IMG/VR virus record: IMGVR_UViG_3300043571_000313
Coordinates: 1 to 64,000 of that record
Strand: one strand, 5' to 3'
DNA: 64,000 nucleotides
Source: a virus
The notes under the pieces were generated by a model. It was not told the origin of the DNA. It saw only the letters and a list, made by a program, of their open reading frames with translations, and searched no databases. This document shows, one piece after another, positions 4,671 through 29,461 of the stretch (its first letter is position 1; every line of letters starts with the position of its first letter). Made by a program: the position numbers and the translations under genes.

Positions 4671-5468
4671 GTGCTCCTACTTTTCGGCACAGGCGGCACA
4701 GGCGGCCCGGGGGGAATTGCCGCCTCGCTGTCGCTCACCGAGGATGCCGACACGCTGAATGCGGCTGGCTCGGTGGCGGTGGCTGCACAGGCGGCACTCA
4801 CCGAGGTTGCTGACACGCTGACTGCGGCCGGATCGGTGCCAGTGGTCGCGCAGGCGGCGTTCACCGAGGTTGCTGATACGCTGACTGCGAATGGCCTGGT
4901 GCCAGTATCCGGTGCGCTGGTAGCCACGGAGGCCAGCGACACGCTTTCAAGCGCGGTCCTTGTCTCGGTTTCCGCAGCGGCCTCGCTTATTGAGGCATCC
5001 GACACGGTCACCTCGAGTGCCGGCGTTGTTGTTACTGCATCGCTCGTCGCAACAGAGGCGGCAGACACGCTGACAGCGTCCGGTGGCAGCGATTTTGGTG
5101 CTGTGTCCGGCACGCTCGTTGCGACCGAGGCTGCCGACACACTTACGGCGTCCGGGTCCGTATCGGTCAGGGCCAGCCTTTCGGCGGCGGAAGCCCCCGA
5201 TACCCTGGGAGCTGCCGGCTCGGTGCTAATCGTCGCAGTTGCGGTGATCACCGATCAGGCGGATACACTGACCTCGTCGGGCATCGTGCTCGATCCACGG
5301 TTTGCCGCGCTGGTGGCGACCGAGGCTTCGGACACGTCAAGCGCAGTGGCGGTCGCCTTTTTCCGCCCAGGATCGGTGGGAGGCGCCCGGCCTATTTCTG
5401 GATCTCCGAGCGGTTTTCTACCCGCTGGAACTGCAATCAATCGAACCCCTGAATACGCCGTGCCATGA
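4671..5468 (+). CDS. virion protein with ~21-aa repeats
   Basis: About ten copies of LxxTExxDTLxAxGxV; near-identical 63-nt-period DNA copies around 4787-4889. Confidence 0.65.
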   Translation: MLLLFGTGGTGGPGGIAASLSLTEDADTLNAAGSVAVAAQAALTEVADTLTAAGSVPVVAQAAFTEVADTLTANGLVPVSGALVATEASDTLSSAVLVSVSAAASLIEASDTVTSSAGVVVTASLVATEAADTLTASGGSDFGAVSGTLVATEAADTLTASGSVSVRASLSAAEAPDTLGAAGSVLIVAVAVITDQADTLTSSGIVLDPRFAALVATEASDTSSAVAVAFFRPGSVGGARPISGSPSGFLPAGTAINRTPEYAVP

Positions 5469-5813: not shown

Positions 5814-7688
5814 ATGCCGCGCCGCCAGTCCGTACTAACATTCCGGCCGAAGGACGGAGGCTCTTTCGTCACGAGCGTCTCCATGGAGAACGCCGGTGCC
5901 GATAACTATGTCGCCAAGACGAACTGGAGGCGAGTGTCGGATCGCGAATGCACTCGCGAGGGGGATGTGCTGTTTCGGCCCAACACCGGGCTGGCGCAAG
6001 GAGTGCAGGCGCTCAACAGCACCGGGCCAGTAATCGGTTTGTGGGAGGCGGTTAGGCCGAATGGCGAGCGCGCGGTGGTGGCGGCGACAGCGACTACACT
6101 GTACAAGTACGTCTTTTCCAGCGGCACATGGTCGACCATTGGGACTGGGTACTCGGCCACCGGGAGGCGCTGGCAGGTCGAGTCGCTAGATGGATACCTC
6201 ATCTTCAACAACACGGTTGACCTGCCGTTCACGTACCGCGTGGAGGATGCCGGCGTTTCACCCATCCATGAACTGCGGGAGATCGGCGTAGCCGCAGTCG
6301 GGCACATCATGGTCTTTAATGGGTTCCTCATCTGCGGGGACTTGACGGAAATAATTGCCGCCGAACTGGCGGGCGTGATGAACAGCGGCAGCCCGTACGG
6401 CTTGGTGGCTTCCAACAAGGTGAACCGGATTCGGTATAAGCTCGCGTGGTCGGACTACAACGCTCCGCGCAACTGGGCACCGATCATCACAGGCACGATC
6501 CAGTCGGCTTCGAAGAACGTCGTCACACTCCAGTATCCGGTGACTGCGCTTCCCAACGGCGCCCGGGTTGGCGTGATCGGGGCCGGCGCTGACGGAGGCA
6601 TGCTGGGAGGAGATGAGGCGAACCCGGACGGCATCCTGATCACGAACGTAACCGGCGCGGTGCTCACGCTACAGGTGGCTGCGGACGCGGCGCTCACGTA
6701 TCCACTCACGGTTCAGGTCACAAGGTTCGCGGACGTCAGCACTTTCGCAGGCAGCGCGTCACTTCAGGACGACAGCGCAGGCATCCAGGGATTGAAGCCG
6801 CTGAACCGAGGCTTGTTTGCCGTTTACCGGGACACGGGGATCTTCCACGGACGGTACACGGGCGAGGTCGAGAACCCGTTTGTCTTCCAGCCGGTTTACT
6901 CGGGGCGCAACGTTCCGTTCTATCAGGACGCAATCCAAGAGCTGTTCGGCGATCGGCATGTGTACCCAACCGAGAACGCATTCTATGTTTACGACGGCAC
7001 CGGCGAGCCGACCCTGTTCGGGGCACTTGATGTCGTTTCGAGTGTGTTCTTCGACGGCATCACTGATGCAAACGCCTTTTCGGCGCACAACCCGATCACG
7101 AAGGAGCTGTGGTTTTTTGCGACGAACGGCGTACTCGCGTACGACTACCTTACGAACTCGGCCAGTTGGATTGACCGTGCGTACACTGCTGCGGCTTACG
7201 TCCGAAAGCCTGACGGCACATCATCTACGACCCCATCCGACTGGTGGTTCATCATGGCTAGGGCTGGTCGCGTCCTCTGCTATGGGCTAACCCACAACGG
7301 CGCGGGCACCTTCTTGCGCGTGAAAGACAGCGACGCAACCACCCAGGCGTACACGGCCCTGCTTCGTTCCGGGCTCATGTACGCGGGCGACGAGAACAAC
7401 GAGAAGGATCTCTATGCGTTCACGCCGATTCTCGGATCGCAAACCGGGCACGTCGACGTGCATGTGAGGTTGTACGGCTGCGACAACCCTGCGATCAGCC
7501 CAGAGCTGCTTTGCGACGTTCTTCTCGACGAGCCGACCGTCGTGAACGAGGTGTCCGTTTTCTTCAGGAACATATACTTCCAGGATGAGATCGAGGTGAC
7601 AGTGTCCGGCGTTCGGGTGGATCTTTCAGCGCGTCAATACAAGCTCGCGCGCGTCGGTTCCGATGGCGTGACTCGTTCCGCCTTTTGA
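5814..7688 (+). CDS. putative tail nozzle/DNA-stabilization protein
   Basis: 624 aa, beta-rich, with HNPITKELWFF..VLAYDY....W as in podovirus nozzle proteins; precedes tail and ejection genes. Confidence 0.5.
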   Translation: MPRRQSVLTFRPKDGGSFVTSVSMENAGADNYVAKTNWRRVSDRECTREGDVLFRPNTGLAQGVQALNSTGPVIGLWEAVRPNGERAVVAATATTLYKYVFSSGTWSTIGTGYSATGRRWQVESLDGYLIFNNTVDLPFTYRVEDAGVSPIHELREIGVAAVGHIMVFNGFLICGDLTEIIAAELAGVMNSGSPYGLVASNKVNRIRYKLAWSDYNAPRNWAPIITGTIQSASKNVVTLQYPVTALPNGARVGVIGAGADGGMLGGDEANPDGILITNVTGAVLTLQVAADAALTYPLTVQVTRFADVSTFAGSASLQDDSAGIQGLKPLNRGLFAVYRDTGIFHGRYTGEVENPFVFQPVYSGRNVPFYQDAIQELFGDRHVYPTENAFYVYDGTGEPTLFGALDVVSSVFFDGITDANAFSAHNPITKELWFFATNGVLAYDYLTNSASWIDRAYTAAAYVRKPDGTSSTTPSDWWFIMARAGRVLCYGLTHNGAGTFLRVKDSDATTQAYTALLRSGLMYAGDENNEKDLYAFTPILGSQTGHVDVHVRLYGCDNPAISPELLCDVLLDEPTVVNEVSVFFRNIYFQDEIEVTVSGVRVDLSARQYKLARVGSDGVTRSAF

Positions 7689-14387: not shown

Positions 14388-14828
14388 ATGCCGTCGCTCA
14401 ACAAAGTCATGCTCATGGGCAATCTCACCCGAGATCCCGAGCTCCGCGTTACCCCCAAGGGCACCGCCATCTGCCAGTTCTCACTGGCCATTAACCGCGA
14501 GTTCAAACTCGAGTCGGGCGAGAAGCGCGACGAGGTTGTCTTCGTTGACGTCGAGGCATGGGGTAAGGCGGGCGAGACCGTCGCGAAGTACCTCACCAAG
14601 GGGAAGCCGCTGTTCGTCGAGGGCCGGCTGAAGCTGGAGCAGTGGGAAGACAAAAAGACCGGCGAGAAGCGCAGCCGCATGAAGGTCGTGCTTGAACAAT
14701 TTCAGTTCATTGGCGTCCGAGAGAACGCAGGCGGTGGCGAGCAGCAGTCCGGCGGCGAACAGCACGCGCCGGCTCCCGCCTCCAAGCCAGCGTCGCAGGA
14801 CAACCTCGATGAGGACATGCCATTCTGA
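14388..14828 (+). CDS. ssb: single-stranded DNA-binding protein
   Basis: LNKVMLMGNLTRDPELR, KGKPLFVEGRL, WEDK and acidic tail DEDMPF. Confidence 0.97.
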   Translation: MPSLNKVMLMGNLTRDPELRVTPKGTAICQFSLAINREFKLESGEKRDEVVFVDVEAWGKAGETVAKYLTKGKPLFVEGRLKLEQWEDKKTGEKRSRMKVVLEQFQFIGVRENAGGGEQQSGGEQHAPAPASKPASQDNLDEDMPF

Positions 14829-17800
14829 TGTCTGGCTCAACGAACTCTCTTGTCCAAGGGTACAGGGCGTACCTTGAACGCAGCGGCAAGGTTGACCTCC
14901 GCACCGACACCGAGCTCACGGTCGAGCTCGGTGACCTCCTGCGCTCAAAGGGCAACGATGCCTTTGATCTGAAGGCGTCGGAGTATCCCGACTTCCGCGA
15001 GCAGTACCTCACAGCCACGCAGTCGACGGATCGGGGTGTGATCGGTGAGGTCGCGGCCGGCGCGCGGCGCGGTGCGCGCAGCCTGGCAGGGACGGCGATG
15101 GGTGCCGTCGCACTCGGCCTCGATGCCGTGGGTGCGAACGAGACCGCGAAGAGTCTGGCCACGAAGGCCGAGGAGTTCGCTTCCGGCGGCGAAGACAATG
15201 CGGCCACCGTCGGCCGGATGAAGGACGTCATAGACGTCGAGGGCGGCGTGCGGTACGCCGCCGGCAAGATCGGCGAGGCGGTTCCGTCCATCGCTGAAGC
15301 CCTCGTCACTGCCACGATCGGCGCGACGGCTGGCACGGCGGCGGCACCCGGACCCGGCACAGCAGGCGGTGCAGCCGCAGGCTTCATCGGCAAGCAGGCC
15401 GTGAAGCAAATGATTCGCAAAGGCGTCGCGACACGAATCCTCGGAAAAGATGTTACGGAAGCCGCTCTCGAGACAGCGCTCAAGGATGCTGCCAATGCCA
15501 CGCTGCGCACCGCGTTCGTGAACGAGAGCCGCGCGCTCGCCGCGCGCATGGGTGCCGGCGCCGTCGGCGCGATCAACTCCCTCGGCCTTTCGTCGGGCGA
15601 AATCTACAACGAGACCGGCGACGTTGCCACGTCGCTCGGTGCTGGCGCCATCGCCGCGATCCCTGACACGATCCTGCCGACCTACATCGTAGGGAAGTTC
15701 TTCCGGGGTGCCGCCAGTGCTGACGACGTGGCGCGAGCGGGCGGTTTCATGAAGCGGCTCGCCACCGAGGCCGCGAAGACCATGCCGATCGAGGCCGGCA
15801 CCGAAGCATTTCAGGAACTCGTCAACATCGCTGCCGTCAAGTTCAACAAGGGCGAGCCAGCCACCCTCGATGCGGCCGACCTCGAGCGCATCAAGGAAGC
15901 GGCGGTGGGTGGATTGGCTGGCGGTTTGGTGGGAGCGCCCATCGCTGCGGCGCCCGCGCCAAACGCCGCCATCGAAGCCCGGCGTGCGGCGGCAACCGGC
16001 ACGACACCCCCGCCGCCCGGCACACCTGTTACGCCGCCGCCGCCCCCGGCGCCCAAGACTCCGACGCGCGGCGAGGTTGTGGCGAAGTGGGTCGCGGCTG
16101 CGCCAGACCTACAGGATGCCCGGATCAACGCGCTGCTGCGCGTCACCCGCACCAAGGACGAGGATCAGGAACTCGAAGTCCTGAATGCGCTCGTGTCCCA
16201 GCGGCCGCCGGCCGTCGCCGCCACTGCGACGCCGCCGCCACCCGCTCCTTCGCCCGCATCAACTGCAACCCCTGCGCCGGCCGCATCAAATTGGCTGACC
16301 GAACAAATAGATCGCGATGCTGCGACTGCCGACCGCTTGGGCTGGACTCAGAAGATCGGCGACATGGCGGCACAGCGGATGACGGCTCGCCAGATTCGGG
16401 ATGCGCTACCGTACCGCGAGAACGGCATCGACCAGATGGACGCGATGAGCATTGTGCTTTCCGCTAGGAATAAGCTGAAAATTCCATCGCAGGAAGAGCG
16501 AGTAGAATTTGAGGAATGGATTAAGGCTAGGCAGCAAACCGCTTCCGCGCCTGCCGCAAGCATGGGCACACCACCGGCCGCGCCGGCACCTAGTGCAGTG
16601 GGCGCGGCCGGTGCAACGGTGACGCCGCTGGTGTCGGCACCCACCCCGCCGCCCCCGCCGCCGGTTGTCGCCCCCGCCCCGGCGCCAAAGCCGCCGACGG
16701 CCGCCGAGCTCACTGACCGGATCAACTCCGCGAACCGCCGGTTCGGGACCATCATCAGCCGTGTCCCGACGCTGGACTTTGCGGCGGCGAAGACCGCGCT
16801 CGAAGCCATCAGCACGTCGCCGACGGACCTCGCGAACGCGGTCCAAAAGTTTGAGGCGTCCGTCGAAACTCTCGAAACGCTCGCAGTCGCCGAGGCTGCG
16901 AAGATCGCAGCGGGCACCGCGCAGAAGCGGCAGGAGGTTGCCACGTCCCGGGCGAAGAACCTTGCCGAAAAGCTGGATGCGCAGGTTGCCGCCGCCGCCG
17001 ACCGCGCGCGCAAGCGCGCCGAGAAGAACGCGAAGATTCTGGCGAAGGAAGCCGAGGCGCCTGCGCCTCCCGCACCGGCGCCTCCGGGTTTCCGCTTGGC
17101 CACAGATCAGGAGATGAGCCTGCCTCTTCCATTGGAGGGTCAGTTTGTGCAGACGGCGAGCGGCGTCATATTTCGTGAGGGAGAGCAACCCGTGGGCGAG
17201 GCGGTCCAGCCGGTAAGAGTCGCGGTTTATCAGAAAGGCGAAAGGTTCCTCACGCAGAGACAGTATGAGGCTGAAGACGTCGCTCCGGTGGCGGAACCCG
17301 TCGTCACCCCGACCGTTCCTGCCCCCGCCGATTTACGAGCCGAGCAGGACGAGGCTGAGAGCGAAGATGATGCCGCCGCGACCGAGCAAATGCGCGCCAT
17401 GGGTCGCTTCGCCGACGCGCTGCTTGCCAAGCAAGGCAAAAAAGCCGCCGAGGTGGTGCCGCCCCCCACCCCCGCCGACGACCTCAAAACCCGCCTCGAT
17501 GCCGTGCTCAACCCTCCTGTCGAGGTGGCGCCGCTGTCGTTCGGCAAGATCGCGGCGATGGATTCGGAGCTGAATACTCAAGGCGCATCAGACAACTCGG
17601 GCACGCGCACGAAGTCGCGCGTCGCTTACGCAATCCGCGACGATCGCGACACGTCGATCCCGGAGGATCAGCGTCCGGTCTATCTCAAGGGCACCGTCGA
17701 CTACTCGAAGGCTGAGGGGCTGCTGCGCGTTGGTCCCGGAGCAACGAAGGGCGTCGGTAAGGCGGTCTTTGCCATGGGTAAGAATCGCGGCAAGCCAGCC

Positions 17801-20800
17801 GAGCGAACCAAGACCATTGAGCCTGGCGGATCGCAACAGGTACTACTTGAGGATCTGGCGAAGGCGGGATTCGTGCCGTACTTGAGGATCGTTTTCGACG
17901 GCGAGCCGGCCGCCATCAGCCGCCACTTCGCCAACATGGCGGAACTGGATGCGGCTATCGCCAAGACCGAGAAGGTGCCCGCTGCCACGACCGCTGTGAA
18001 TGTGGCTGCTGGGCGCAGCACCCTGCGCTCTGACATCATCACAACGGGAGACGCGGCAATGACTGTCGCCGAATCCGCGCTCGCCCCCGAGGACGCGGCG
18101 AACGAGCAGTCGCCGGCTGCTGCGCTGGCAGAGGCGATGACAAAGGTGATGGACGGCATGACCACCACCATGCTCGACAGCATCGTTCGCCGCGCCGCGA
18201 AGGCGAAGGCCTCGATCGAGGCGACGATCGAGGGCATGCCTGCATTCGGCCGGGAGCTGCTGAAGAAGGTGATGGTCGAGACCGATGCCACCCCGGCGAT
18301 GGTTGTTACCTACGTTCGAAGCTCACTGCCGGCCGACACTGAGATCCCGGCTGGCCCGGGAACCTTTTCGCTCGATGCCAAGAAGGCCACGACATCGAAG
18401 ACGACCGCAGCACCCGCGCTCAAGGGGTTCGACAAGGTGCCGCTGGCGGCGCTCGAAAAGCTGTATGAGGTCATCACCCGCTCGCCCAAGAACCTCGACG
18501 GAAACTTCGACGGCAAGGAGCTTTCGTCCGGCTGGCTTGATCGACTCAATATCCTGTTCGAGCGGACGGGCATGGCGTCATTCGATGAGTTCGTCGCCAC
18601 GCTGGACAAGTTGTCCAAGGCGGCGAAGTCGCCGACCCAGTTCGCGGCTGCGCTCAAGGGCAAGCCGATGTATGAGAGTCAGGAGTTCACCGTCCCGCTC
18701 CCGCCGGTCGGCCACTTCGAGGCGCTGGTGCAGCGTCTCCGCAACAACGGCTTCGATGTCGAGGTGATCCAGCGCGAGCTGGGCATGACGCTCGCCGGCA
18801 TGTATCGCGGCGGGAAAATCTTCGTCGCGCTGGAGGACATGGCCAACGCCAACCTCGCCGGTCTTCGGCGCCTGATTCACGAGGCTGGCCACGCGGTCAT
18901 CGACCAGGAGTCCATGCAGACGCGCGAGGATCTGCAGCGTGCGGTTGAGAGCACGATGAGCGAGGCCGACAACGGCGCGATCTTCAAGGCGGCGCTGAAC
19001 GCCGGCAAGGACTGGGAGGAAATGCTGGTCGACACTACCGCGATCAAGCTGGCCGAGGAAGGCTTCGGCGAGAAGTCAGCCACCATTGCCGAGGCGATCT
19101 GGCGGACGGTGAAGGACGTTTACTACCGGGTGGGCATGGCGATGCTGCGCGCGCTGGGCGTCGATCCGTCGCCGGAAAGTGTCCTTGCGTGGTGGGACAA
19201 TAACATGCGGCGCCACCTGGGCGGCGACTTCGACTTCCGATTCACAGACCTCTTCCGCCCACACGTTGAGCGCAACGCCGAGCGCGTCTCCCGCTTCACC
19301 ATCGCCGACGGGCAAGACATTCCCGACCTCCTCGATCCTATCACCGGCCGCGTGACGCAGGCCGAGGTAGTGCCGGACACCGTCGAGGCAGCGGAGTGGA
19401 ACCTCAAGTTCATGAAGGATGGCGTGGCCGGCGCGGACATGGACTACACCGAAGCCATGGCGCGGGTCACGGCGGCGGCATGGAACGAGGCGATGCCCGT
19501 GATCCAGCGGCTCAAGGCAGAGCTCCTGCCGGCCGGGACGGATGATCAGTTCTGGGCCATCTTTTCCCCATCGAAGGACACTCCGCAGAAAATCGTTGAG
19601 GAGATGGAGAAGCGGGTGCCCGGCGCAGCGACGGCAAAGGTCGGTGGTGAGAAGATGACCGATGCGATGAACTCTCGCGCGCGTGCGAAAGCGTTCCGCA
19701 TCATCACCGGACTTGCTCGAGCAGCCCGCAAGCGCGCGGCCGGCAGCGAAGCAGCCATCACCCGCGAGTCGGACGCGATCGTTGCCAAGGCGGAACAGCT
19801 AAACCGTGCCGACCGCGAGCTCCGCGACGCGACCGCAATGGATGCTGTTTTCAACGACGCGCTGCGCGACCTCATCAAGGAACTCTCGGTCGGCATCGAC
19901 AGCGGACCCGACACTGCTTTTGCGGCCGGCAAGCTGGCGGGCGCCATCCGCGAGATCGAGCGGCTGACAGACAAGGACGCGATCCCCGCCGAGTACCAGA
20001 ACGTTTTCAAGCGGCTACTCGACAGCGGCGGCGTGTCGGTCTTCGACTACCTGAGCGCCATCGCCCGCCTGAAGCTGCCTCTCGGCAGCATGAAGGTGCC
20101 GGACATCATGAAGGCGATCAGCGAGAACGCTGCTTCCGACTCCCGCCTTGCTTCGCTCAACGATCAACGCCCCCTCGCCGTCGCGCTCTCCACCCTGGCG
20201 CGCAACTCGACGCGCGAGATGGACCTCCTTCAACTGCGCTCACTCAAGGACGCTGCCGAATACACTTCGATCCGCGCCGAGCTGGACGAGATCCAAGTAG
20301 CCAACGAAACCCGCCTCGAGGAAATCGCCAAGGGGATCGACGCCAAGGCCGAGAGTCTGAGTCTGCGGGACCGGCTGAAGCAGGCATACGTTGAGGCACG
20401 CCGGGATTTCAACCGCTCGCGCAAAACAATCCAGCGCCAGCAGGAGTTGGTCATCCAACGCAAGCGCTTTGCCGACGTCATGGAGGAGCGCGCCACGGAG
20501 CTATCCCGCGACGTGGGATCGTTCTCGTTTTGGGAGGCGCACGACGGCGCTCAATACCGGGCGATGACCCGGGGTGACGACGGCAAGTGGACGGCAACCG
20601 AGCGCACGCTGCGCATGGTGGGCGATGAGATTACTGAACAGCACGAGCAGGTTTCGCACGACATGGCGATGAACCGGCTTTGGCTGAACATGCACAAGGA
20701 TCAGGCTGGCTCCCGCCTCTATGAAGAGGTGAAGCGCCAGACATGGGAACTCACCAAGCTCGACTTCGCCAAGAACTATGAGGCGGCGACACGCTTCCGC

Positions 20801-23800
20801 ATGGACCGCTGGCTGCAGCCGCTCGGCCAGAAGTTCGCCGGCACGGGTGAGCTGGCCGGCACCAAGATCAAGCAGATGCTCATTGCGTGGCAGTCGGTGA
20901 TGTTTCAGCACTCCGACCAGGTGGATGCCGCCGCGCGCCGCTGGACGAAGGCGCTGAAAGATGCGTCGAAGGACGCAGGTTACACGAACGAGAAGCGATT
21001 CTTCGACGAGGTGGTGAACCCCGCCATCTACGCCATCGAGAGTGACCCGGGGCGCGACGAGGCCGGCGCTCTCCGCACCGCGCGCAAGGTGGCGGCCCGC
21101 ATCATTCCGCCCGCCTACACCGTCGGGCCGAACTTCAACCTGAAGCTGGAGCGGCTGCTGCGCGCGCACAAGGAGGTGAGCGAACTCATCGTTCAGATCG
21201 CCGAGAAAAATGGCGTGTATGTGAACGACAGTCGCATGCGCGATCCGCTCACGGGCAAGGCCGGCATGCTGCGGCACGCCATCAAGTACGGCTGGTTCAC
21301 TTCGACTCGCAGGCTGCGGGGCGAGGCGGTGCGCATCCTGACCAAAGACATGCACCAGGCCGGGTGGCGCGACGACACCTTCACGGATCTGCCCGAGACT
21401 GCCGAACTTGACAAGCTGGTGGGCAAGCACTTCACGCCGACGATCATCAAAGGATTCGTGGAGCCGTTCGTCCGCAAGCCTGGGCGCGAGGTGTTCTTCG
21501 GAGCAAAGGATGCCAACGATAAGCCGACCTATGTTTCGCAGCTCACGGCGCAGGAGTTGTGGGAAGGCGCTGGCGGCGACGTGATGAAGTTCATCGACGC
21601 GATGTATGATCGGACCAACCCGCTCGACAATCGCGACGCGCTGCCCGAGTACCGGCGCTCAATCCTCGCCCGCTTCAATCAGCTCTACACGATGGAGTCG
21701 AAGCTGGCCGCAAAGACGGAGTCGGGCGGCGGACTCGATCACATGACGCAGAAGAGCCATCGCGTGATGGACTCCCGCACCAATGACCTGATCCCGCCTG
21801 AGCATTTTCAGTATGACATTTTCTCTCCCATCGATGCGCGGCGGGCACTGACGGAGGTGGCGTTCCACGCTGCGTTCGGCCGCGACGGCGTCGCGCTGGA
21901 CAAGGCGATGATCGATCTCGACAAGGGGCTCAACCTGTCGGCCGACCGCTACAAGATGATCCCCGAGGGCACGCGCAAAGAGAAGGAGGCCTACGCCAAG
22001 GAGCAGGGCTGGGACTTCAAGAAGCTGGAGCGTGCGGCCGACGATCGCAAAGCAGTCTCGGCCTGGAAGGCGAAACTCGTGAAGCACTTCACCGGCAGCG
22101 AAGCCGTGGTCGGCGACGCGCGCACGATGCTCGAGCTCGCACAGCTGAACGTGGCCCTGCTGCTCAATCAGCCGAAGTCGGCGCTGTGGAATCTCCTCTC
22201 CATCCTCGAGTATCCGCTGGTCTATCGCGGCCTCAACCGCAGCTCAGTCCGCGCCACTGCGACGGCCGCGCGCGTGCTGGCGCGCGAGATCACTGGCTCG
22301 TTTCTCAAGGTGGCCGGCGTGAACCTCACCCAGAAATTCGAGTACGCGAATGAGATCGCTGAGATCGTGGAGCGCAAGGAGACGGAGCGCCTGGACTTCG
22401 GCACACTCATGGCGGACATCGGGCCGGATGGCCGATTCACTCAGGGCGGTGTAGGTAACACCGTGACGGAGGTGAGCCGTGGCATCCAGACTGCGATGCG
22501 AAAGGGGTTCAAGGGTAACAACGCGCTGTGGGCACCCTTCAACTTCATCAGCCACAAGGCCGACACCGCCATCGCGACGGCCAACGTGCAGGCGTTTGAG
22601 ATGATGGTGAAGCGCGCGATCGACTACTTCGAACGCCACCCGGAAGCGCGTGACAACCCCGCGTTCCGGCTCACGTCCGACCACCTCGGGATGTCGGAAG
22701 GCTGGTTCTCTGAGGCTGGCACCTTCGACTACTTCCGCACGCGCGCGATGGAGTACGGGCTTGGATCCCTGGAGGACATCGCCCGCGAAGCGGCCATCGG
22801 ACGTGACAGCGGCGGCAAGCTGCTCACCCGCGATCAGGCGCTCGGCGTGGCGATGATGGCGCTCAATGAAATCTCGCTGCATGCCGGCGTGAACTCCCGC
22901 CTGATCGAGATGATCGACAATCCGATCCTGCGCTTCGGCGGCCTGATGCTGGGCTGGCCCCTGTCGAAGGTGAATCAGATCAACGACGCCTTTAAGGATG
23001 CCGATGGCAAGGCGACGCTGGCCTCGGCGATGCGTGCGGTCGGGATCATGGCGGCGTGGACGCTGCCGGCTGGCCTCGCCTACTCGCTAATGGTCGACGA
23101 GTATGACGACAAGCTCCTGAACAAGAAGTCGAACCTCCGCAGCATCGACCCCATTGCGATCACGCCGGTCGTCGGCCCGCTGCTGGCGGCGGCTTCCGAT
23201 TCGGGCAACATCCTCGGCATGCTTGAGCGGCTGGCGCGCGCCGGAACCTACGGTATCGTGGGCGACATGGTGAACTCCTTCACCAACGTCGTCGATCCGT
23301 CGAGTGGGCAGCGTGACTTCGACCTCAACAGCCGCGTGCTGGTCTTCAATCAGTTCGCGAACATCCGCGACGTCTTCCGTAACCTCATCCACCAAGACGG
23401 CGAGATGACGTACCAGTCCACCGGGCGCCCGCTGATCTCGGCGATGGGTGGCGGCGGCCTACTGCAGGCGATGCAGCTGGTGAACGCCCGTCTTGGCCTG
23501 ACCAACGCCGAGGCGGCAGTCACGAATCGGATCAACGTGAACAACTACCTGCGCGCTGCCGGCCGTGCCGTCGACATCGAGCTTCGTGGTGGCACCGCCC
23601 GCAGCCTGCCAACAGCACGCTCCGTCTGGCTGAATCAGATGCAGGTGATGGCGCTCTCCAACGATCGCGTTGGATTCGCCGAGGCGTACCGCAACGCCGT
23701 CGACGTGGCCCGCCGCCAGGGCGAGCCGGACCCCGAGGCCAAGGTGCTCGAAGACTTCAAGTCCCGCCACCCGCTTTCGTCGGTGTTCCGCACCAAGCCC

Positions 23801-24022
23801 TCCGAGGTGGAGATGGGCAAACTCATGTCGACTCTTGACGACACAGGGAAGCAGGCGGTTCAGCAGGCACTCGCCTTGTTCGAATCCTTCACTGAGTTAA
23901 TCGAGCCGAACCCAATCATCCAGCGAATCAAGCAGCAGCAGGCGGCACAAATGCGAGCGGCGCAGCCACTCACCATTGAGCAGCTGCGCCGCCGTGCGGC
24001 ATCAGGTGTGATGGGTTACTGA
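14828..24022 (+). CDS. giant internal virion/polyvalent protein with a zincin-like HExxH motif
   Basis: 3064 aa; N-terminal Gly/Ala membrane-like region (EAGTEAFQE), Pro-rich linkers, LIHEAGHA...WEE, helical C-terminus. Confidence 0.7.
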   Translation: MSGSTNSLVQGYRAYLERSGKVDLRTDTELTVELGDLLRSKGNDAFDLKASEYPDFREQYLTATQSTDRGVIGEVAAGARRGARSLAGTAMGAVALGLDAVGANETAKSLATKAEEFASGGEDNAATVGRMKDVIDVEGGVRYAAGKIGEAVPSIAEALVTATIGATAGTAAAPGPGTAGGAAAGFIGKQAVKQMIRKGVATRILGKDVTEAALETALKDAANATLRTAFVNESRALAARMGAGAVGAINSLGLSSGEIYNETGDVATSLGAGAIAAIPDTILPTYIVGKFFRGAASADDVARAGGFMKRLATEAAKTMPIEAGTEAFQELVNIAAVKFNKGEPATLDAADLERIKEAAVGGLAGGLVGAPIAAAPAPNAAIEARRAAATGTTPPPPGTPVTPPPPPAPKTPTRGEVVAKWVAAAPDLQDARINALLRVTRTKDEDQELEVLNALVSQRPPAVAATATPPPPAPSPASTATPAPAASNWLTEQIDRDAATADRLGWTQKIGDMAAQRMTARQIRDALPYRENGIDQMDAMSIVLSARNKLKIPSQEERVEFEEWIKARQQTASAPAASMGTPPAAPAPSAVGAAGATVTPLVSAPTPPPPPPVVAPAPAPKPPTAAELTDRINSANRRFGTIISRVPTLDFAAAKTALEAISTSPTDLANAVQKFEASVETLETLAVAEAAKIAAGTAQKRQEVATSRAKNLAEKLDAQVAAAADRARKRAEKNAKILAKEAEAPAPPAPAPPGFRLATDQEMSLPLPLEGQFVQTASGVIFREGEQPVGEAVQPVRVAVYQKGERFLTQRQYEAEDVAPVAEPVVTPTVPAPADLRAEQDEAESEDDAAATEQMRAMGRFADALLAKQGKKAAEVVPPPTPADDLKTRLDAVLNPPVEVAPLSFGKIAAMDSELNTQGASDNSGTRTKSRVAYAIRDDRDTSIPEDQRPVYLKGTVDYSKAEGLLRVGPGATKGVGKAVFAMGKNRGKPAERTKTIEPGGSQQVLLEDLAKAGFVPYLRIVFDGEPAAISRHFANMAELDAAIAKTEKVPAATTAVNVAAGRSTLRSDIITTGDAAMTVAESALAPEDAANEQSPAAALAEAMTKVMDGMTTTMLDSIVRRAAKAKASIEATIEGMPAFGRELLKKVMVETDATPAMVVTYVRSSLPADTEIPAGPGTFSLDAKKATTSKTTAAPALKGFDKVPLAALEKLYEVITRSPKNLDGNFDGKELSSGWLDRLNILFERTGMASFDEFVATLDKLSKAAKSPTQFAAALKGKPMYESQEFTVPLPPVGHFEALVQRLRNNGFDVEVIQRELGMTLAGMYRGGKIFVALEDMANANLAGLRRLIHEAGHAVIDQESMQTREDLQRAVESTMSEADNGAIFKAALNAGKDWEEMLVDTTAIKLAEEGFGEKSATIAEAIWRTVKDVYYRVGMAMLRALGVDPSPESVLAWWDNNMRRHLGGDFDFRFTDLFRPHVERNAERVSRFTIADGQDIPDLLDPITGRVTQAEVVPDTVEAAEWNLKFMKDGVAGADMDYTEAMARVTAAAWNEAMPVIQRLKAELLPAGTDDQFWAIFSPSKDTPQKIVEEMEKRVPGAATAKVGGEKMTDAMNSRARAKAFRIITGLARAARKRAAGSEAAITRESDAIVAKAEQLNRADRELRDATAMDAVFNDALRDLIKELSVGIDSGPDTAFAAGKLAGAIREIERLTDKDAIPAEYQNVFKRLLDSGGVSVFDYLSAIARLKLPLGSMKVPDIMKAISENAASDSRLASLNDQRPLAVALSTLARNSTREMDLLQLRSLKDAAEYTSIRAELDEIQVANETRLEEIAKGIDAKAESLSLRDRLKQAYVEARRDFNRSRKTIQRQQELVIQRKRFADVMEERATELSRDVGSFSFWEAHDGAQYRAMTRGDDGKWTATERTLRMVGDEITEQHEQVSHDMAMNRLWLNMHKDQAGSRLYEEVKRQTWELTKLDFAKNYEAATRFRMDRWLQPLGQKFAGTGELAGTKIKQMLIAWQSVMFQHSDQVDAAARRWTKALKDASKDAGYTNEKRFFDEVVNPAIYAIESDPGRDEAGALRTARKVAARIIPPAYTVGPNFNLKLERLLRAHKEVSELIVQIAEKNGVYVNDSRMRDPLTGKAGMLRHAIKYGWFTSTRRLRGEAVRILTKDMHQAGWRDDTFTDLPETAELDKLVGKHFTPTIIKGFVEPFVRKPGREVFFGAKDANDKPTYVSQLTAQELWEGAGGDVMKFIDAMYDRTNPLDNRDALPEYRRSILARFNQLYTMESKLAAKTESGGGLDHMTQKSHRVMDSRTNDLIPPEHFQYDIFSPIDARRALTEVAFHAAFGRDGVALDKAMIDLDKGLNLSADRYKMIPEGTRKEKEAYAKEQGWDFKKLERAADDRKAVSAWKAKLVKHFTGSEAVVGDARTMLELAQLNVALLLNQPKSALWNLLSILEYPLVYRGLNRSSVRATATAARVLAREITGSFLKVAGVNLTQKFEYANEIAEIVERKETERLDFGTLMADIGPDGRFTQGGVGNTVTEVSRGIQTAMRKGFKGNNALWAPFNFISHKADTAIATANVQAFEMMVKRAIDYFERHPEARDNPAFRLTSDHLGMSEGWFSEAGTFDYFRTRAMEYGLGSLEDIAREAAIGRDSGGKLLTRDQALGVAMMALNEISLHAGVNSRLIEMIDNPILRFGGLMLGWPLSKVNQINDAFKDADGKATLASAMRAVGIMAAWTLPAGLAYSLMVDEYDDKLLNKKSNLRSIDPIAITPVVGPLLAAASDSGNILGMLERLARAGTYGIVGDMVNSFTNVVDPSSGQRDFDLNSRVLVFNQFANIRDVFRNLIHQDGEMTYQSTGRPLISAMGGGGLLQAMQLVNARLGLTNAEAAVTNRINVNNYLRAAGRAVDIELRGGTARSLPTARSVWLNQMQVMALSNDRVGFAEAYRNAVDVARRQGEPDPEAKVLEDFKSRHPLSSVFRTKPSEVEMGKLMSTLDDTGKQAVQQALALFESFTELIEPNPIIQRIKQQQAAQMRAAQPLTIEQLRRRAASGVMGY

Positions 24023-24023
24023 G

Positions 24024-25112
24024 TCAGCGGTGCACGTAGCCCTCGGTTACGGCTTCCGAAGTGCGCGAGTGGCCAAGCAGCCGGCCGATCTGCTCGATGG
24101 TCTTACCCGCCTTCTCCATGCGGGTGGCGAACGAATGGCGCAGGCAGTGGAACGACTTCCCCTCGATGCCGAGGTCGGCTAGTATGCGGGCGTAGTAAAC
24201 GCTGTGCCGTGCGCGCCTCGCGGGGTCGAGGGCTATCGCGCGCTCATCAGGGAAGACGTACTTCGGGTCGAGGCATTCAGCCATCATGTCGAAGAAGATT
24301 CCGCGCAGCTCGCCGCCGCCGAGAAGCGGGTCGTCGATCGGCAGCGCCACCCGCGCCCCACTCTTCCGCGTCCAGACGACGATCTCATCGGGCATGATGC
24401 TGCCCCACTCCAGGCACGCGCAGTCCGACAGGCGCAGCCCCGCCCAATAGGACAGCGCCGTCCACCACTTCCACTTGCCGGTCGTGTGCGCCATGATGTG
24501 CTTGAACTCGCGCTCGCTGAACGGCACGCGCCGGACCGGCTCCTTCTGCTCATGCGAAAGATCGTTGAGCCGGACCCTAACCAGCTTTGATGGGTTGCCG
24601 GCGTAGTACGCCTTCGCCGTGACGAAGTCGAAGAACGATCGGATGGATGCGAGGCGCACGTCCCGGTTGCTGGCCGTCGTCGTGTCCTTCTTGGAGTTTA
24701 CGAATCCATCGAGGTGCTCGAAGGTGAGGCGGGTGACCGGCCACTTCGATGCGTCGTTGGCCTTGACCAGGTGGCGCAGCACGAGCTCTTGCGTGCGCAC
24801 CGTGTTGGGCGCGGCGTTCGTCTTGCGCCATACTACCCACTCGGCGATCGCCTGATCGAGCGACACCTTGCGGCCGGCCATGATGGCAGTGAGGGCTTCA
24901 GCAGTGAGCGCACGAGCACGCGCCGCCATCTCCATCTCCAGCACCTTCGACTGCACGACGACCTCGCGCGCCTTCTCGATGGTGGATTGCTTTGTCGATC
25001 GCGTGTGCGACTTGCCCTGCGCGTCGAGGAACTTGACGTGATAGATGCCCGACTCCTGATCGCGGGTCAGGTGGGCATCGAGTTCGGCTTTGGTTGGCAC
25101 GCCGTAACCCAT
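24024..25112 (-). CDS. int: tyrosine recombinase/phage integrase
   Basis: Catalytic residues GLRLSD, HCLRHSFAT, LLGH and terminal Y (EGYVH); arm-binding-like N-terminus. Start is probably ATG 25112 or 25130, not 25493. Confidence 0.9.
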   Translation of the reverse strand: MGYGVPTKAELDAHLTRDQESGIYHVKFLDAQGKSHTRSTKQSTIEKAREVVVQSKVLEMEMAARARALTAEALTAIMAGRKVSLDQAIAEWVVWRKTNAAPNTVRTQELVLRHLVKANDASKWPVTRLTFEHLDGFVNSKKDTTTASNRDVRLASIRSFFDFVTAKAYYAGNPSKLVRVRLNDLSHEQKEPVRRVPFSEREFKHIMAHTTGKWKWWTALSYWAGLRLSDCACLEWGSIMPDEIVVWTRKSGARVALPIDDPLLGGGELRGIFFDMMAECLDPKYVFPDERAIALDPARRARHSVYYARILADLGIEGKSFHCLRHSFATRMEKAGKTIEQIGRLLGHSRTSEAVTEGYVHR

Positions 25113-25127
25113 GCCATGTGGTGACTT

Positions 25128-25146
25128 CATTTTGAAGATTAAAATG
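25128..25146. promoter_or_regulatory. palindromic operator-like site CATTTT-N7-AAAATG upstream of int
   Basis: CATTTT GAAGATT AAAATG; same geometry at 35660 and degenerate copies at 54917 and 58032. Confidence 0.5.
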
Positions 25147-25160
25147 TGGGTGCTTGCCCG

Positions 25161-25213
25161 GCCGAACGAGTCGCCGGAGCGGACGCTACGCGCCGCTCGG
25201 CTTGGTGTTCGGC
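25161..25213 (+). mobile_element. attC: integron attC-like recombination site 1 (53 bp)
   Basis: R'' GCCGAAC, 5-nt spacer, L'' GCCGGAGC (extra G), GGaCGC-TAC-GCGCC stem (extra A), L' GCTCGGC, 5-nt spacer, R' GTTCGGC. Confidence 0.85.
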
Positions 25214-25536
25214 CGATAGTGTTCCGTCCCGGTGGTTGCAAATCCGTATCGTTTCCCGGTCGGGTCCGGGAGCAGTTGGCAGTTGGCGATGACATCACAC
25301 ACCAGCGTCCGCTCCGGGTCGCGCATGTGCTTCTGCATCTGCGATAGCATGTCCACGCGCCTTCGATTCCAGTCTGCGGAGTGCGTGAGCTTGCGGCAGT
25401 GCTCCACCAGTTCGTCCTGCATGAGCTTTCCGGTCGGGTCGCCCACGGCAGCGCGAATGTCCGCCAAAAGGCCCAACAAGGCGGTCGAGCCAACAGCCGC
25501 CTCGCGTTTCCGTTTCGTTGCGTTCCGGTTCTTCAT
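25186..25536 (-). CDS. cassette-borne hypothetical protein A
   Basis: 116 aa; ATG in the attC2 loop, TAG in the attC1 loop; N- and C-termini encoded by attC arms. Confidence 0.7.
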   Translation of the reverse strand: MKNRNATKRKREAAVGSTALLGLLADIRAAVGDPTGKLMQDELVEHCRKLTHSADWNRRRVDMLSQMQKHMRDPERTLVCDVIANCQLLPDPTGKRYGFATTGTEHYRPNTKPSGA

Positions 25537-25596
25537 ACACTTTTTCTGTCGGCCACGCCCGCTGTCGGCGGCTGTGGCTCACCTTGGTCGTTCGGC
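25471..25596 (+). mobile_element. attC: integron attC-like recombination site 2 (126 bp)
   Basis: R'' GCCCAAC, AAGGC, L'' GGTCGAGC (extra C), CAACAGCCGC (extra A) ... GCGGCTGTG, L' GCTCACC, TTGGTC, R' GTTCGGC. Confidence 0.9.
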
Positions 25597-25835
25597 AATC
25601 GCATCGCGTGAGCAATTTCGTGCGCAGAATAATCGCTTGCCCGATCACTGCCACCCCCACCTTCAAGTCCGTGCTTTTTGCAAAAACGATCGTACTCGTA
25701 ATCAGAAATGACCGGACGGCACATCACGTAATATAAATACTGATGCGCTCGCATCGTTAAAAATGGCGAACAAGGCGCCACAGCCAAGCCGGACGGCCGC
25801 CCGTCCTTGGTCGCTTCGGTTTCAGGTGTCTTCAT
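25533..25835 (-). CDS. cassette-borne protein B, similar to domain Ia of NAD+-dependent DNA ligase
   Basis: ATG 25835 with GGAG RBS in attC3; HQYLYYVMCRPVISDYEYD matches the LigA Ia motif HxYxYY...P.ISDxEYD; TGA in the attC2 loop. Confidence 0.7.
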   Translation of the reverse strand: MKTPETEATKDGRPSGLAVAPCSPFLTMRAHQYLYYVMCRPVISDYEYDRFCKKHGLEGGGGSDRASDYSAHEIAHAMRLPNDQGEPQPPTAGVADRKSV

Positions 25836-25871
25836 GATTTTTCTCCGGCTGGCTGATCTTTGGAGTTGCTG
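25765..25871 (+). mobile_element. attC: integron attC-like recombination site 3 (107 bp, more degenerate)
   Basis: R'' GGCGAAC, AAGGC, L'' GCCACAGC, CAAGCCGGA (extra A) ... TCCGGCTG, L' GCTGATC, TTTGGA, R' GTTGCTG. Confidence 0.7.
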
Positions 25872-26077
25872 CCAAGCGGCGACTGATTCACCCCACTCCA
25901 AAAGGACTGGTCATTCAGCGCGTTCGCGACAGCCTTACATGCCTCCTCGCGGGTCATGCCTTTTGCGATACAAGCCTCGATGGCTGACTGTGCATCGTCA
26001 TAAAGCATCTTGCCCACTTGCGCCGGGGTGAGGCCGCAGATTGTGCTCTGAGTTAGGATGGCTTTTTTCTTTTCCAT
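25832..26077 (-). CDS. hypothetical protein C, ending inside attC3
   Basis: 81 aa; C-terminus SNSKDQPAGEKS is encoded by the attC3 arm; TGA overlaps the ATG of gene B. Confidence 0.6.
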   Translation of the reverse strand: MEKKKAILTQSTICGLTPAQVGKMLYDDAQSAIEACIAKGMTREEACKAVANALNDQSFWSGVNQSPLGSNSKDQPAGEKS

Positions 26078-26089
26078 AAGAGGGCAATG

Positions 26090-29000
26090 TTACGCCGCCA
26101 CCTCGATGACTGGCGCGAGGACCGGACGGTTGGCAATGATGAGCTGCTTGCGCAGTTCAATCCACTGCGACTCGCACTCCGACTCAGAGAGGACGTCGCC
26201 GTCCTCGGCCTTGAAGTTGACGATGTGCTCGGCAAGAACCTCGCTCGCGTCGAGGGTCTTGAAGTCCCGAGGCACCCGCTTCCCATGCAGGCACAGCGTC
26301 GCGGCATCCTGCTTCAGCGCGACCCGATCGAACAGCAGTTCCTCGATGGAGTTCTGATGCAGGACGCACCAGATCTTCACCGGCTTCGGCGAGGTCAGAC
26401 GCCACACTCGACCCTGTGCCTGGTTGAGCGTGCCATAGCTCCACTCGAGCGAGCCAACGATGAGGTTCGGGCATTGGTCGAAGCTGTGCCCTTGGGCGCA
26501 CTTGATGCCCATGAGCATGACCCGAGCGTCGCCCTTCTTGAAGCGGTTCGCCTCGGCCGCATGCAGGTCCGGCCGGACGGTGGAGTCGATGCGGGCAATC
26601 GGGATCTTGGCGTTCGCCAGGCGGGATGCCAGCTCCGACGACTGGCCGACGCGCGCCGACACCACCACGACCTGCTCGCCGCGCTTCAGGCAATCGCGCA
26701 CCAGCTGCAGGATGGTGATGGTCTTGTGATTGAAGTTGGATTTGCACATGTCCCTCGTGTAGTCGAGGGACGCTGGCGAGGCGCAGCACCCACGCAGCCG
26801 TGACGACTGGACGCGGGCAATGGTCAGCGCGCTCTTGAACTCGGTCAGGTAGTTGCGCCGCTCCAGCCAGAACTGATACAGCTTCGACTGCTCCTTGCCC
26901 ATGGCGACGCGGACGTCGATGACCTCGCACGGCTGCAGGTTCGGGTTGCAATCCTTCTTGCTGATGTAGGCGAGCGTGGGCTTGAGCAGCTTCAGCAGGC
27001 GGGCTGGCGAACTGATGACCGGCGAGTGCTTGGTCCCGGTGTTGCGCCAGCCGCGCTTGCCCCGGGCCTTCGCCTTCCACTGTGCAGTCAGATCCTCCTC
27101 GACGGAGAGGAATGTCGAGTTGAACCGGCCGATCTCGTCGACGGCGTAGGGCCAGGCCGCATTGCGCATCTTGCCCTTGTGCCAGTCTTTCACGCACAGC
27201 CATCCCATGAGGGAGAAGATATTCGAGATGACATTGGGGATCGGTGTCGCCGTGAGGGCGAAGCGATACTTGGGCTGCAGGCGGAACAGGTTCTTTGTTA
27301 CCTGCGCCTCTGCGTTACAGTAGAGGTGCGCCTCATCGCAGATGACCATGTCCCACGCATCGCCGTGGGTGGAGGCGACGATCGTGGCGAGCGACGGCAG
27401 GCCGATGCAGCGAATGCCGTGCTTGTTGCCCGCGCCGACGTTGCGGCAGAACTGCTCCTCGACCGGGCGCTTCTCGTCATACTTGAGGTTGAAGCGCTCG
27501 CAGAACTTCTTCTCCGCAACCCGATCCCAGCTTTCGGGAAGATGCTCGAAGCCACCGTTGCTGAAGTAGGCCTGCGGGTAGGTGATGTAGATGCCGGGCG
27601 GGAGTTCGCCGGCGTTGGCATGGAGGATGGCGTACCAATCCTCGGCGCTGAAGAGCTGGAAGACCGGCTCGCCGGGAGCGAAGCGCTGGATCTCGGACAC
27701 CCACTGCGATGCTTGATAGTCGATCTCCTCATCCTCCTCGGTGGAGCGCATCGTACCCTGCGGTGCGATCAGCAGCGTGCGCTTCGGAGACTTGAGGGCG
27801 ATGAGCGTCAGGGCGCCGAGCGACTTGCCGGTCCCCGTCTCGGCTGCGACCAGCCCGTAATCCTTGCACGCCATGCGAGCGTAGAAGTCCAGCTGGCCGG
27901 GGAAGTAGGTAAACCCAGCCATCATCTCATTGAACCGCATCGCGTTCTTGTTGCGCTCGAACTGATCGACCTCGACCTCGGCGATCGTCGGGACGAACGG
28001 CTTGTCGAAGAGAGTCCACAGCATGTCCTCGGGGTGCTGCCAGCTCATGCCTTCGGCCGGCCGATCCATGAACCGATGCACGCGGCGGTGATCGTCGGTC
28101 ACCTCGATGTAGCGATCCTCGCCGGACAGCCGGCACTCGTGATCCTCGATCTCCGTGGTGTCCTCGTCCTCGTCGTAGTAGATCTTCTTGCGGGTGAACT
28201 TCTCCGTGAAGGTGTAGGTCCCGGTGCGAATCTCGTACCGCTTCCCGACCGTGAGCTTGATGATGCCGGCCTCGTGCGCGGCCTTGCACTTCAGCGCCTC
28301 CTCCTCGTCGGCGTAGGCAACGAGCTCGAAGTCCGTGACCGGCATGATGGGACACGCCATCGAGGCGACCTCAGCCAGGGCGGCGGCGATAGCCTTGCGC
28401 GCCTCGGGCTGGATCGTGTAGATGCCGTCGTTGACGAACTGATGCAGCAGCTTCCGCGTCTCCTTCTCCGTGGTCAGCGTGAGCGGGTGGCACCCATTGA
28501 TGCGGTGCAGCCGGACGATCTCGTCGTCCTTGATCTTCACCTGTGCACGGGTGCTCAGGTAGGTGCGAAGCGCGCCGTCCTTGCCGAGGTAGATATTAAA
28601 CTTCGGCCGGTCGAGGTGTTCTTCCTTGATGATCTTGGACAGGTTATTCCAGTCGAGGTAAAGCGAGTAGTGCTCAGTGTAGGGTGAGTACCAGTACGGC
28701 TGGCCGGACACCTGATGCAGGTTGCTCTTGATCGTGCGTCCGTACTCGAAGAGCTGTTGCTGATCCGGCATGTGGTCCCACACCTTCTGATTGCGCGGCC
28801 GGCCGACGATGTTGCCGAAGTGCACGATGCCGAGCTCGACATCGCAGTTCTCCCAGATGCCACCGGCGGGGAACCGCTGGTAGAGGTACACCCACGGGTC
28901 ATCCTGAATGCCGAGCTTCTCAATCGTCTTGGCGTTGGAGATGAGGAAGCCGCAGCCGTTGTTCGCGAGCCGCTTCTTGATCATCTGCCACGTCCACTCG

Positions 29001-29461
29001 GTCGAGTCGATCGTCTCACCATTCGCCAGCTTCCAGCGGATAGCGAACGGCGGGTTCGACACGATGCACGGGAAGCGCAGGTTCGGGAAGATCTCATCCA
29101 TCACCTCGAAGGTGTGGACGCAGGACCCGGTGATGCGGTCGACGGGTTTGTCCCAGGTGTTGCGGCCGGTGAGCGAGGTGCGCGCCGCCTCATCCTCATC
29201 GGCGAAGCGCTTGTCGATCTCGGTGCCGTAGTATTGCTGCGCCGAGAGCGCGCGGATCAGGTTGCCGCCGGCGCACTGCGGATCGAAGACGGTGTTGAAG
29301 TTGCCGAACGGGAGCTGGGCCACGAGGCCTTGGGCAAGCCAAGGCGGTGTTTGATACTGCTGCTGGCCGCCCTGAAGCGCGTGCTTCGCGGAGACGGCTG
29401 CGTCGATGACTTCCTGGATGTTTTCGTTTTCGATCCCGGAGCGTGCGTCGGTGATGTTCAT
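26090..29461 (-). CDS. N6-adenine methyltransferase fused to an SNF2-family helicase (DarB-like)
   Basis: YQTP, FDPQCAGGNL (motif I), SNPPF (motif IV); helicase motifs AETGTGKS, DEAH, LTATP, QAQGRVWR. Confidence 0.85.
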   Translation of the reverse strand: MNITDARSGIENENIQEVIDAAVSAKHALQGGQQQYQTPPWLAQGLVAQLPFGNFNTVFDPQCAGGNLIRALSAQQYYGTEIDKRFADEDEAARTSLTGRNTWDKPVDRITGSCVHTFEVMDEIFPNLRFPCIVSNPPFAIRWKLANGETIDSTEWTWQMIKKRLANNGCGFLISNAKTIEKLGIQDDPWVYLYQRFPAGGIWENCDVELGIVHFGNIVGRPRNQKVWDHMPDQQQLFEYGRTIKSNLHQVSGQPYWYSPYTEHYSLYLDWNNLSKIIKEEHLDRPKFNIYLGKDGALRTYLSTRAQVKIKDDEIVRLHRINGCHPLTLTTEKETRKLLHQFVNDGIYTIQPEARKAIAAALAEVASMACPIMPVTDFELVAYADEEEALKCKAAHEAGIIKLTVGKRYEIRTGTYTFTEKFTRKKIYYDEDEDTTEIEDHECRLSGEDRYIEVTDDHRRVHRFMDRPAEGMSWQHPEDMLWTLFDKPFVPTIAEVEVDQFERNKNAMRFNEMMAGFTYFPGQLDFYARMACKDYGLVAAETGTGKSLGALTLIALKSPKRTLLIAPQGTMRSTEEDEEIDYQASQWVSEIQRFAPGEPVFQLFSAEDWYAILHANAGELPPGIYITYPQAYFSNGGFEHLPESWDRVAEKKFCERFNLKYDEKRPVEEQFCRNVGAGNKHGIRCIGLPSLATIVASTHGDAWDMVICDEAHLYCNAEAQVTKNLFRLQPKYRFALTATPIPNVISNIFSLMGWLCVKDWHKGKMRNAAWPYAVDEIGRFNSTFLSVEEDLTAQWKAKARGKRGWRNTGTKHSPVISSPARLLKLLKPTLAYISKKDCNPNLQPCEVIDVRVAMGKEQSKLYQFWLERRNYLTEFKSALTIARVQSSRLRGCCASPASLDYTRDMCKSNFNHKTITILQLVRDCLKRGEQVVVVSARVGQSSELASRLANAKIPIARIDSTVRPDLHAAEANRFKKGDARVMLMGIKCAQGHSFDQCPNLIVGSLEWSYGTLNQAQGRVWRLTSPKPVKIWCVLHQNSIEELLFDRVALKQDAATLCLHGKRVPRDFKTLDASEVLAEHIVNFKAEDGDVLSESECESQWIELRKQLIIANRPVLAPVIEVAA

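Follow-up and report, generated by a model that had tools for sequence, protein, structure and literature searches.

The window analysed here is the first 64 kb of an IMG/VR virus record of 73,809 bp, which carries direct terminal repeats, is rated 100% complete and has a GC content of about 62%. The runs in which the phage DNA occurs are lake-water metagenomes. On the minus strand the gene order is SNF2 helicase, ORF3, ORF2, ORF1 and tyrosine integrase. The SNF2-type helicase (26090–29461) has a methylase-like N-terminal part; it is a conserved upstream neighbour and served as the query for related phages. Relatives of this gene were found in Verrucomicrobiota MAGs, for example of Opitutus and Pedosphaera. 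We note that six SNF2 homologues of 1270–1510 aa (P0027, P0030, P0034, P0043, P0044 and P0111) contain Hint/intein and homing-endonuclease Pfam domains; inteins have thus entered this phage gene in some lineages. The tyrosine integrase int (24024–25130, minus strand; PF00589), which is not an IntI, points away from the small ORFs. Its stop is separated by one base from that of a convergent giant gene, a plus-strand ORF of 3064 aa (14828–24022) with Pro/Ala-rich linkers and a HEAGH metalloprotease-like motif.

Three small minus-strand genes fill the interval between the helicase and the integrase. ORF1 (25186–25536, 116 aa) and ORF3 (25832–26077, 81 aa) have no assigned function; ORF2 spans 25533–25835 (100 aa). 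ORF3, ORF2 and ORF1 are linked by ATGA stop/start overlaps and follow the SNF2-to-int direction, in agreement with the first-pass annotation, which placed the cassette genes on the minus strand, co-directional with the phage operon. A blastn search of 24000–26100 against the phage collection gave no match.

The interval also contains three hairpins that had been proposed to be integron attC sites. Site 1 (25161–25213, plus strand) has the R'' box GCCGAAC (25161–25167) and the R' box GTTCGGC (25207–25213), with the crossover between G25207 and T25208. Site 2 (25471–25596, plus strand) has the boxes GCCCAAC and GTTCGGC and a crossover between G25590 and T25591. Site 3 (25765–25873, plus strand) is degenerate, with GGCGAAC, GTTgcTGCC and a crossover between G25865 and T25866. 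The proposed positions were correct, the R'' boxes starting at 25161, 25471 and 25765 and the R' GTT at 25207, 25590 and 25865. R'' and R' pair at 7/7 positions in site 1 and 6/7 in site 2; site 3 pairs only if a 2-nt insertion in R' is allowed, and two of its L positions are unpaired. The spacers are unpaired and 5 to 6 nt long, and the loops range from 3 to 65 nt. The loop of site 1 is 3 nt in the model alignment, and the site contains the stop codon of ORF1. The loop of site 2 holds the ORF2 stop and the ORF1 start (ATGA overlap 25533–25536), that of site 3 the ORF3 stop and the ORF2 start (ATGA overlap 25832–25835). In all three sites both extrahelical bases sit in the 5' (L'') arm on the plus strand, at positions that match chromosomal sites in the model alignments; plus is therefore the top strand, as had been claimed.

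Folding of the sites as single-stranded DNA, a check that the first-pass annotation had suggested, gave a mixed result. Site 1 folds well on both strands (-19.7 and -19.6 kcal/mol, z -3.4 and -3.3) and site 2 moderately (z -1.9 and -2.7); the fold of site 3 is weak, hardly better than shuffled sequence (z -0.5 and -0.9). Site 1 was also considered as a terminator, a tRNA-like attP and a core site. It has no T run and no tRNA, its arms are 39 nt apart, and these readings were abandoned on account of the covariance model match described below. A perfect 14-nt inverted repeat (25174–25187 and 25304–25317) additionally has one copy (CCGGAGCGGACGCT) in the L'' arm and loop of site 1 and the other in a part of ORF1 that is conserved; by a rough estimate the chance of such a repeat in about 1 kb is near 0.002.

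A structural detector (7-nt R box with AAC/GTT, 4–6-nt spacers and an L stem with one bulge) reported three sites in the 64 kb, against about 2.1 expected from Markov shuffles, and missed site 3. The architecture alone is thus not above chance. One of its calls, at 6800–6950, has no support from the covariance model, and the detector was rejected as evidence by itself. Genuine attC sites were therefore collected from bacterial chromosomes. Using NCBIfam TIGR02249 with a cut-off of 265 bits, IntI was found over the cut-off in 115 of 401 sampled Verrucomicrobiota genomes, some with multiple copies, and the array side of 30 of these intI genes was scanned with the detector. One 4-Mb contig (L089) has at least 15 periodic, near-identical attCs beside intI. 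In every chromosomal array with periodic sites the bulged arm lies on the side predicted from the position of intI. From 32 intI-adjacent sites of 10 genomes, aligned as top strands with an explicit structure, we built a covariance model (R1) that includes no phage sequence; it is our own model with shortened calibration, distinct from that of IntegronFinder, and the window was searched with filters off.

R1 ranks precisely these three sites highest in the window, each on the plus strand: site 2 with 53.2 bits (E 4e-11), site 1 with 37.8 bits (E 3e-7) and site 3 with 27.2 bits (E 1e-4), the lowest score going to the site already described as the more degenerate. The next best match in the window scores 11 bits, and no match beyond the three has an E below 1; on the minus strand site 1 reaches only 10.4 bits, and R1 located no further attC in the rest of the phage genome. 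Over its first 25 nt site 2 is near-identical to the chromosomal attCs of L089, starting GCCCAACAAGGCGGTCGAGCCAAC where the L089 site starts GCCGAACAAGGCGCTAGAGCCAAC. Among 37 phage-borne sites 90.4% of cells are paired, compared with 62.5% after shuffling and 35–44% when the partners are slid; double changes number 228 against 75 in shuffles and are seen in all 20 L-stem pairs. These values are somewhat flattered, as the 37-site alignment was fitted to R1. AAC/GTT is invariant in 36–37 of the 37 sites. The three sites are genuine integron attC sites, and the attC architecture claimed at the outset, together with the covariance-model check proposed for it, is borne out. An attempt to survey arrays across IMG/VR with a 14-base attC half-site pattern was discarded because the matches were mostly chance; R1 gave hits in 17 of 80 loci, and three of the 17 lie close to an IntI and are possibly host DNA.

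The three sites bound two putative cassettes. Cassette A (25208–25590, plus-strand coordinates, 383 bp) consists of the ORF1 body and site 2, and cassette B (25591–25865, 275 bp) of the ORF2 body and site 3. ORF3 lies between the SNF2 stop and site 3, its SNF2 side being without an attC. Codon usage of ORF1 is phage-like (GC3 0.79), as is that of ORF3. The body of the ORF2 cassette looks foreign, with 47% GC against 62% for the genome. ORF2 resembles NAD-dependent DNA ligase in its domain Ia; the match to PF22745 (E 2e-5) scores 25.5 bits, short of the 27-bit cut-off. Its family comprises stand-alone ligase-domain-Ia-like proteins of 57–134 aa, some named ligase by JGI.

In both cassette bodies every plus frame contains stops and one minus frame is open throughout, which places the cassette genes on the bottom strand. 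The two cassettes thus have no top-strand ORF of the canonical kind. Strand calls from the longest open frame were given up as too noisy in short high-GC cassettes, and a read-through test was used instead. Among the phage-family cassettes, 13 of 15 have a bottom-strand frame that continues through the R boxes on either side; none of 16 chromosomal cassettes has one. The chromosomal control L089 has one top-strand ORF per interval, located between the sites, which accords with the earlier statement that cassette genes normally run along the top strand. In the phage the coding sequence uses the sites themselves. At each site the R'/L' arm supplies the upstream gene with the codons for its C-terminal tail, and the L''/R'' arm provides roughly the first 20 residues of the protein that follows. 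Thus the last 7 codons and the stop of ORF1 are encoded by site 1, and ORF2 takes its first 23 aa from site 3 and its tail from site 2. Of 21 phage-borne sites, 16 have the AAC of R' in phase 0, where it is read as Asn; against an expectation of one third the binomial p is 7e-5, although the 21 sites are not independent. A phase-0 stop lies within the site in 21/21 phage-borne and 24/32 chromosomal sites.

Homologues of the cassette genes mark the same boundary at the protein level. ORF1 has 229 homologues; among the 51 closest, 27 end their common core with ...RPN, followed by 27 different tails. Those of ORF2 behave alike, with ...L[AP]N and then differing tails. Two unrelated proteins, P0145 and P0148, share with ORF2 only its site-encoded leader of 23 residues. 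ORF1-like cassettes occur in other IMG/VR contigs at 80–86% nucleotide identity, each flanked by opposite-strand attCs. At the nucleotide level four further viral contigs can be aligned with the window as far as GGCC(C/G)AAC, beyond which all similarity ends, and blastn alignments to two contigs (L236 and L237) end at window position 25207. The breaks in other contigs thus fall exactly at AAC/GTT, where the first-pass annotation had anticipated them (between the G and the TT of R'). Similarity among ORF1 cassettes has its 5' limit at about 25530, close to the R'' box and loop, and not at 25590, so that the cassette's own attC has either diverged much faster than the ORF or been exchanged. ORF1 was not found in the 401 Verrucomicrobiota genomes searched. 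We also note a stretch of 32 residues, ALLGLLADIRAAVGDPTGKLMQDELVE[HR]CRKL (window 25394–25485, ORF1 residues about 18–49), which is 94–97% identical in many small metagenome proteins. These proteins (for example P0247–P0266) are otherwise unrelated, the position of the stretch varies among them, and a divergent contig of run X9 matches this stretch only.

Related phages were gathered by means of aligned SNF2 homologues, giving 53–55 related loci; searches with single proteins had returned no locus for the integrase and only two distant ones for SNF2. Among the relatives the gap between SNF2 and int varies from 0 to about 5 kb, and ORF1–3 are present in none of the 53–55 loci. The idea that the interval is a plug-in slot of variable content is thereby upheld. 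R1 located attC arrays in five relatives, always on the strand opposite to the genes and hence in the same inverted orientation. L007, a complete 72-kb contig with direct terminal repeats, has two sites upstream of SNF2 and six between int and the giant gene; L030 has four, L046 five, L013 one directly after int, and L005 one (5275–5326), a homologue of site 1. The C-terminal part of the giant gene is kept in relatives and bounds the far edge of the second attC slot (L007, L013). The L007 cassettes include three DNA methyltransferases, of MT-A70, N6_N4 and N6 type. Similarity between the window and L005 begins at CCGAAC of site 1, and a different gene enters the L005 site. Its inner stem shows a compensatory swap, from GAGCGG/CCGCTC to GACCGG/CCGGTC. 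A comparison for cassettes common to the phage-family arrays yielded one short match only, between L013 and L030. In the closest relative, L052, the SNF2 protein is 91% identical, and homology breaks directly after the SNF2 stop codon. That contig ends 521 nt past SNF2, and its MAG contains no match to the int region. ORF3 differs from the L052 gene at this position, though the SNF2 side of ORF3 has no attC.

A natural variant lacking cassette A was located by comparing Logan contigs of four lake runs with 24000–27200. Uncovered stretches (in X8 and X9) were counted as evidence only where a contig bridges them. One joint was reported, 25206 to 25590, which skips 383 bp and occurs in contigs of runs X6 and X9. 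The joint shares with both sides the 7 letters GTTCGGC, the R' boxes of sites 1 and 2; slippage within this microhomology could also produce it. In X9 the bridging contig has a short side of 38 nt and a depth of 4.5, and 25284–25390 is uncovered; in X6 the joint is a minor contig (short side 23 nt, depth 2) alongside the full form at depth 5.5. The deleted segment is exactly the 383-bp unit, 25208–25590, that had been delimited as a cassette beforehand. In the variant ORF2 would be predicted to end ...LPN-TKPSGA-stop, in frame. No joint for cassette B was found among the contigs of the four lake runs. As the run data consist of contigs instead of raw reads, neither rare forms nor excised circles are visible in them.

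The three sites lie within 713 bp with no IntI nearby, the arrangement termed a CALIN. The neighbouring recombinase is not an IntI, and the locus is thus no complete integron: the phage integrase scores 34.8 bits on TIGR02249 against the cut-off of 265 and is best matched by a Xer-like model (49 bits). Throughout the 73.8-kb phage genome the best TIGR02249 scores are 25–35 bits. A host enzyme is plausible given the 115/401 Verrucomicrobiota genomes over the IntI cut-off, although in the Opitutus MAG of L052 the only IntI-like gene stays below the threshold, at 237 bits. A second possible source is provided by an unrelated viral contig of 56.8 kb, L252 (IMGVR_UViG_3300013800_000011; CheckV 92%), with phage replication genes. 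Its region L252:10129–17152 (contig positions 16128–23151) contains an IntI of 280 bits, over the cut-off, beside 11–13 attCs. The cassette ORFs of at least 110 aa in this array are all on the bottom strand, co-directional with intI and transcribed towards it, and include Dam and N6_N4 methylases and an ORF1-like gene. Relative to the array, the integrase of the window occupies the exact place and orientation that intI has in an integron, as in L252, a correspondence that may be coincidental. The recombinase is most probably IntI supplied in trans from the host or another phage; phage-borne IntI, as in L252, is the alternative source.

Taken together, the data very probably describe a CALIN in a complete temperate lake phage, whose cassettes turn over by attC x attC recombination with IntI acting in trans and whose genes are held in an inverted, in-frame format. 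In this mechanism the three sites would bound two complete cassettes, and a cassette would be gained or lost by site-specific recombination between the G and the TT of R', the IntI coming from the host or another phage. Each cassette contributes one bottom-strand ORF, co-directional with the SNF2-to-int operon. Every attC loop contains the upstream gene's stop and the downstream gene's start, the N-terminal leader being encoded by the L''/R'' arm and the C-terminal tail by the R'/L' arm of the next site. The crossover between AA and C falls in a triplet read as Asn, and any cassette at any site would therefore be completed in frame and translationally coupled. We infer that this in-frame design was selected for modular exchange. 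A broader proposal, to which we give an even chance, is that freshwater phages hold a cassette pool of their own in a phage-operon format, able to plug in anywhere with coupled expression independent of Pc, and moved by host or phage IntI such as that of L252. Were such a pool to exist, phage-format cassettes would be antisense and hence silent in a bacterial integron.

The proximity of the arrays to int deserves attention. In the window, L005, L013, L007 and L030 they lie no more than a few hundred bases from it, the phage genome has no IntI, and in the window int sits where L252 has its real IntI. The phage integrase itself might accordingly recombine the hairpins, as a private cassette system that reuses the attC fold. 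We consider this unlikely. The protein is a generic Xer-like integrase (49 bits, with 34.8 against the 265-bit IntI cut-off), and most relatives have the same integrase without any attC. The geometry is not conserved, the array being on the other side of int in L007, L013 and L030, and chromosomal attCs on which IntI acts are nearly identical to the phage sites.

Recombination in trans by IntI has also to be weighed against two further readings. That 27 independent tails begin directly after one and the same Asn codon, that the stems covary and that AAC/GTT is fixed all argue against relic host cassette DNA acquired beside attP, for example by imprecise excision, and no longer subject to site-specific recombination, with the variants arising by homologous or microhomology recombination between the boxes. 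Moreover the gene layout is opposite to that of chromosomal cassettes and regular across many phage contigs, and ORF1 was not found in the 401 Verrucomicrobiota genomes. Such a relic would fit the degenerate site 3, the 7 bp shared at the observed deletion and the location of the array, where attP-adjacent accessory genes usually gather, but overall it appears improbable. The placement of stop and start codons in the loops, with ATGA overlaps, could point instead to hairpins that act mainly as RNA elements of the early transcript (in coupling, processing or attenuation), since a terminating ribosome would open the stem; the likeness to attC would then be secondary. This leaves unexplained why AAC/GTT is invariant, why the extra bases lie on one side, why the match to attC reaches 53 bits and why breakpoints fall at AAC, and we regard it as very improbable as the main function. 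An RNA role may exist alongside recombination.

Integrons are viewed as bacterial devices in which one promoter expresses top-strand cassettes. In the phage, attC sites form part of an operon in the opposite orientation, and the coding sequence continues across them. If this reading is correct, attC sites tolerate, and even encode, protein termini and gene junctions, and phages own a plug-in route for accessory genes. Counter-defence is the kind of cargo suggested by the methyltransferase cassettes of related phages. Inverted cassettes of this type would be mis-annotated in surveys that look for ORFs on the top strand. The lake populations, polymorphic for one cassette, offer a natural system in which to follow cassette turnover.

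Canonical attC sites, in the definition of Nivina et al. (NAR 2016, PMC5027507), have a bottom-strand R' of the form RYYYAAC, cleaved in AAC, and extrahelical bases by L''; their central spacer is unpaired and their terminal structure varies. The phage sites share the R' motif, the extrahelical bases, the spacer and the variable terminus. For canonical cassettes, which are mostly promoterless, the top-strand orientation is essential for expression from Pc (PMC5027507). The phage ORFs, by contrast, would face Pc and would instead be expressed by read-through of the phage operon. The attCs of the sedentary chromosomal integrons of Verrucomicrobiota (for example L089) are nearly the same in sequence and fold, sharing the R boxes, the 5-nt spacers, the two extra bases of L'' and motifs such as AACAAGGCG...GAGCCAAC. 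These integrons differ in having an adjacent IntI, which the phage lacks, and in having a top-strand ORF between sites where the phage has a bottom-strand ORF through both.

The first-pass annotation implied that a phage-borne array was new, a view that holds only in part. Clusters of attC sites, and even complete integrons, have been described in phages (Qi, Rajabal, Ghaly, Tetu and Gillings, Front Microbiol 2023, PMC9892861). That survey of 10,705 NCBI phage genomes yielded 17 CALINs and does not mention Verrucomicrobia. It established phage attCs as IntI1 substrates in assays and noted methyltransferase cassettes; it found same-direction arrays to be typical and did not report bottom-strand ORFs across the recombination point (PMC9892861). 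Our locus resembles those CALINs in having at least two close attCs in a phage without IntI, and orphan DNA methyltransferase cassettes recur here in L007 and L252. It differs from them in the inverted format, which extends across a phage family and other lake viral contigs, and in the natural loss of a cassette. It therefore appears that the inverted, read-through, in-frame cassette format is new.
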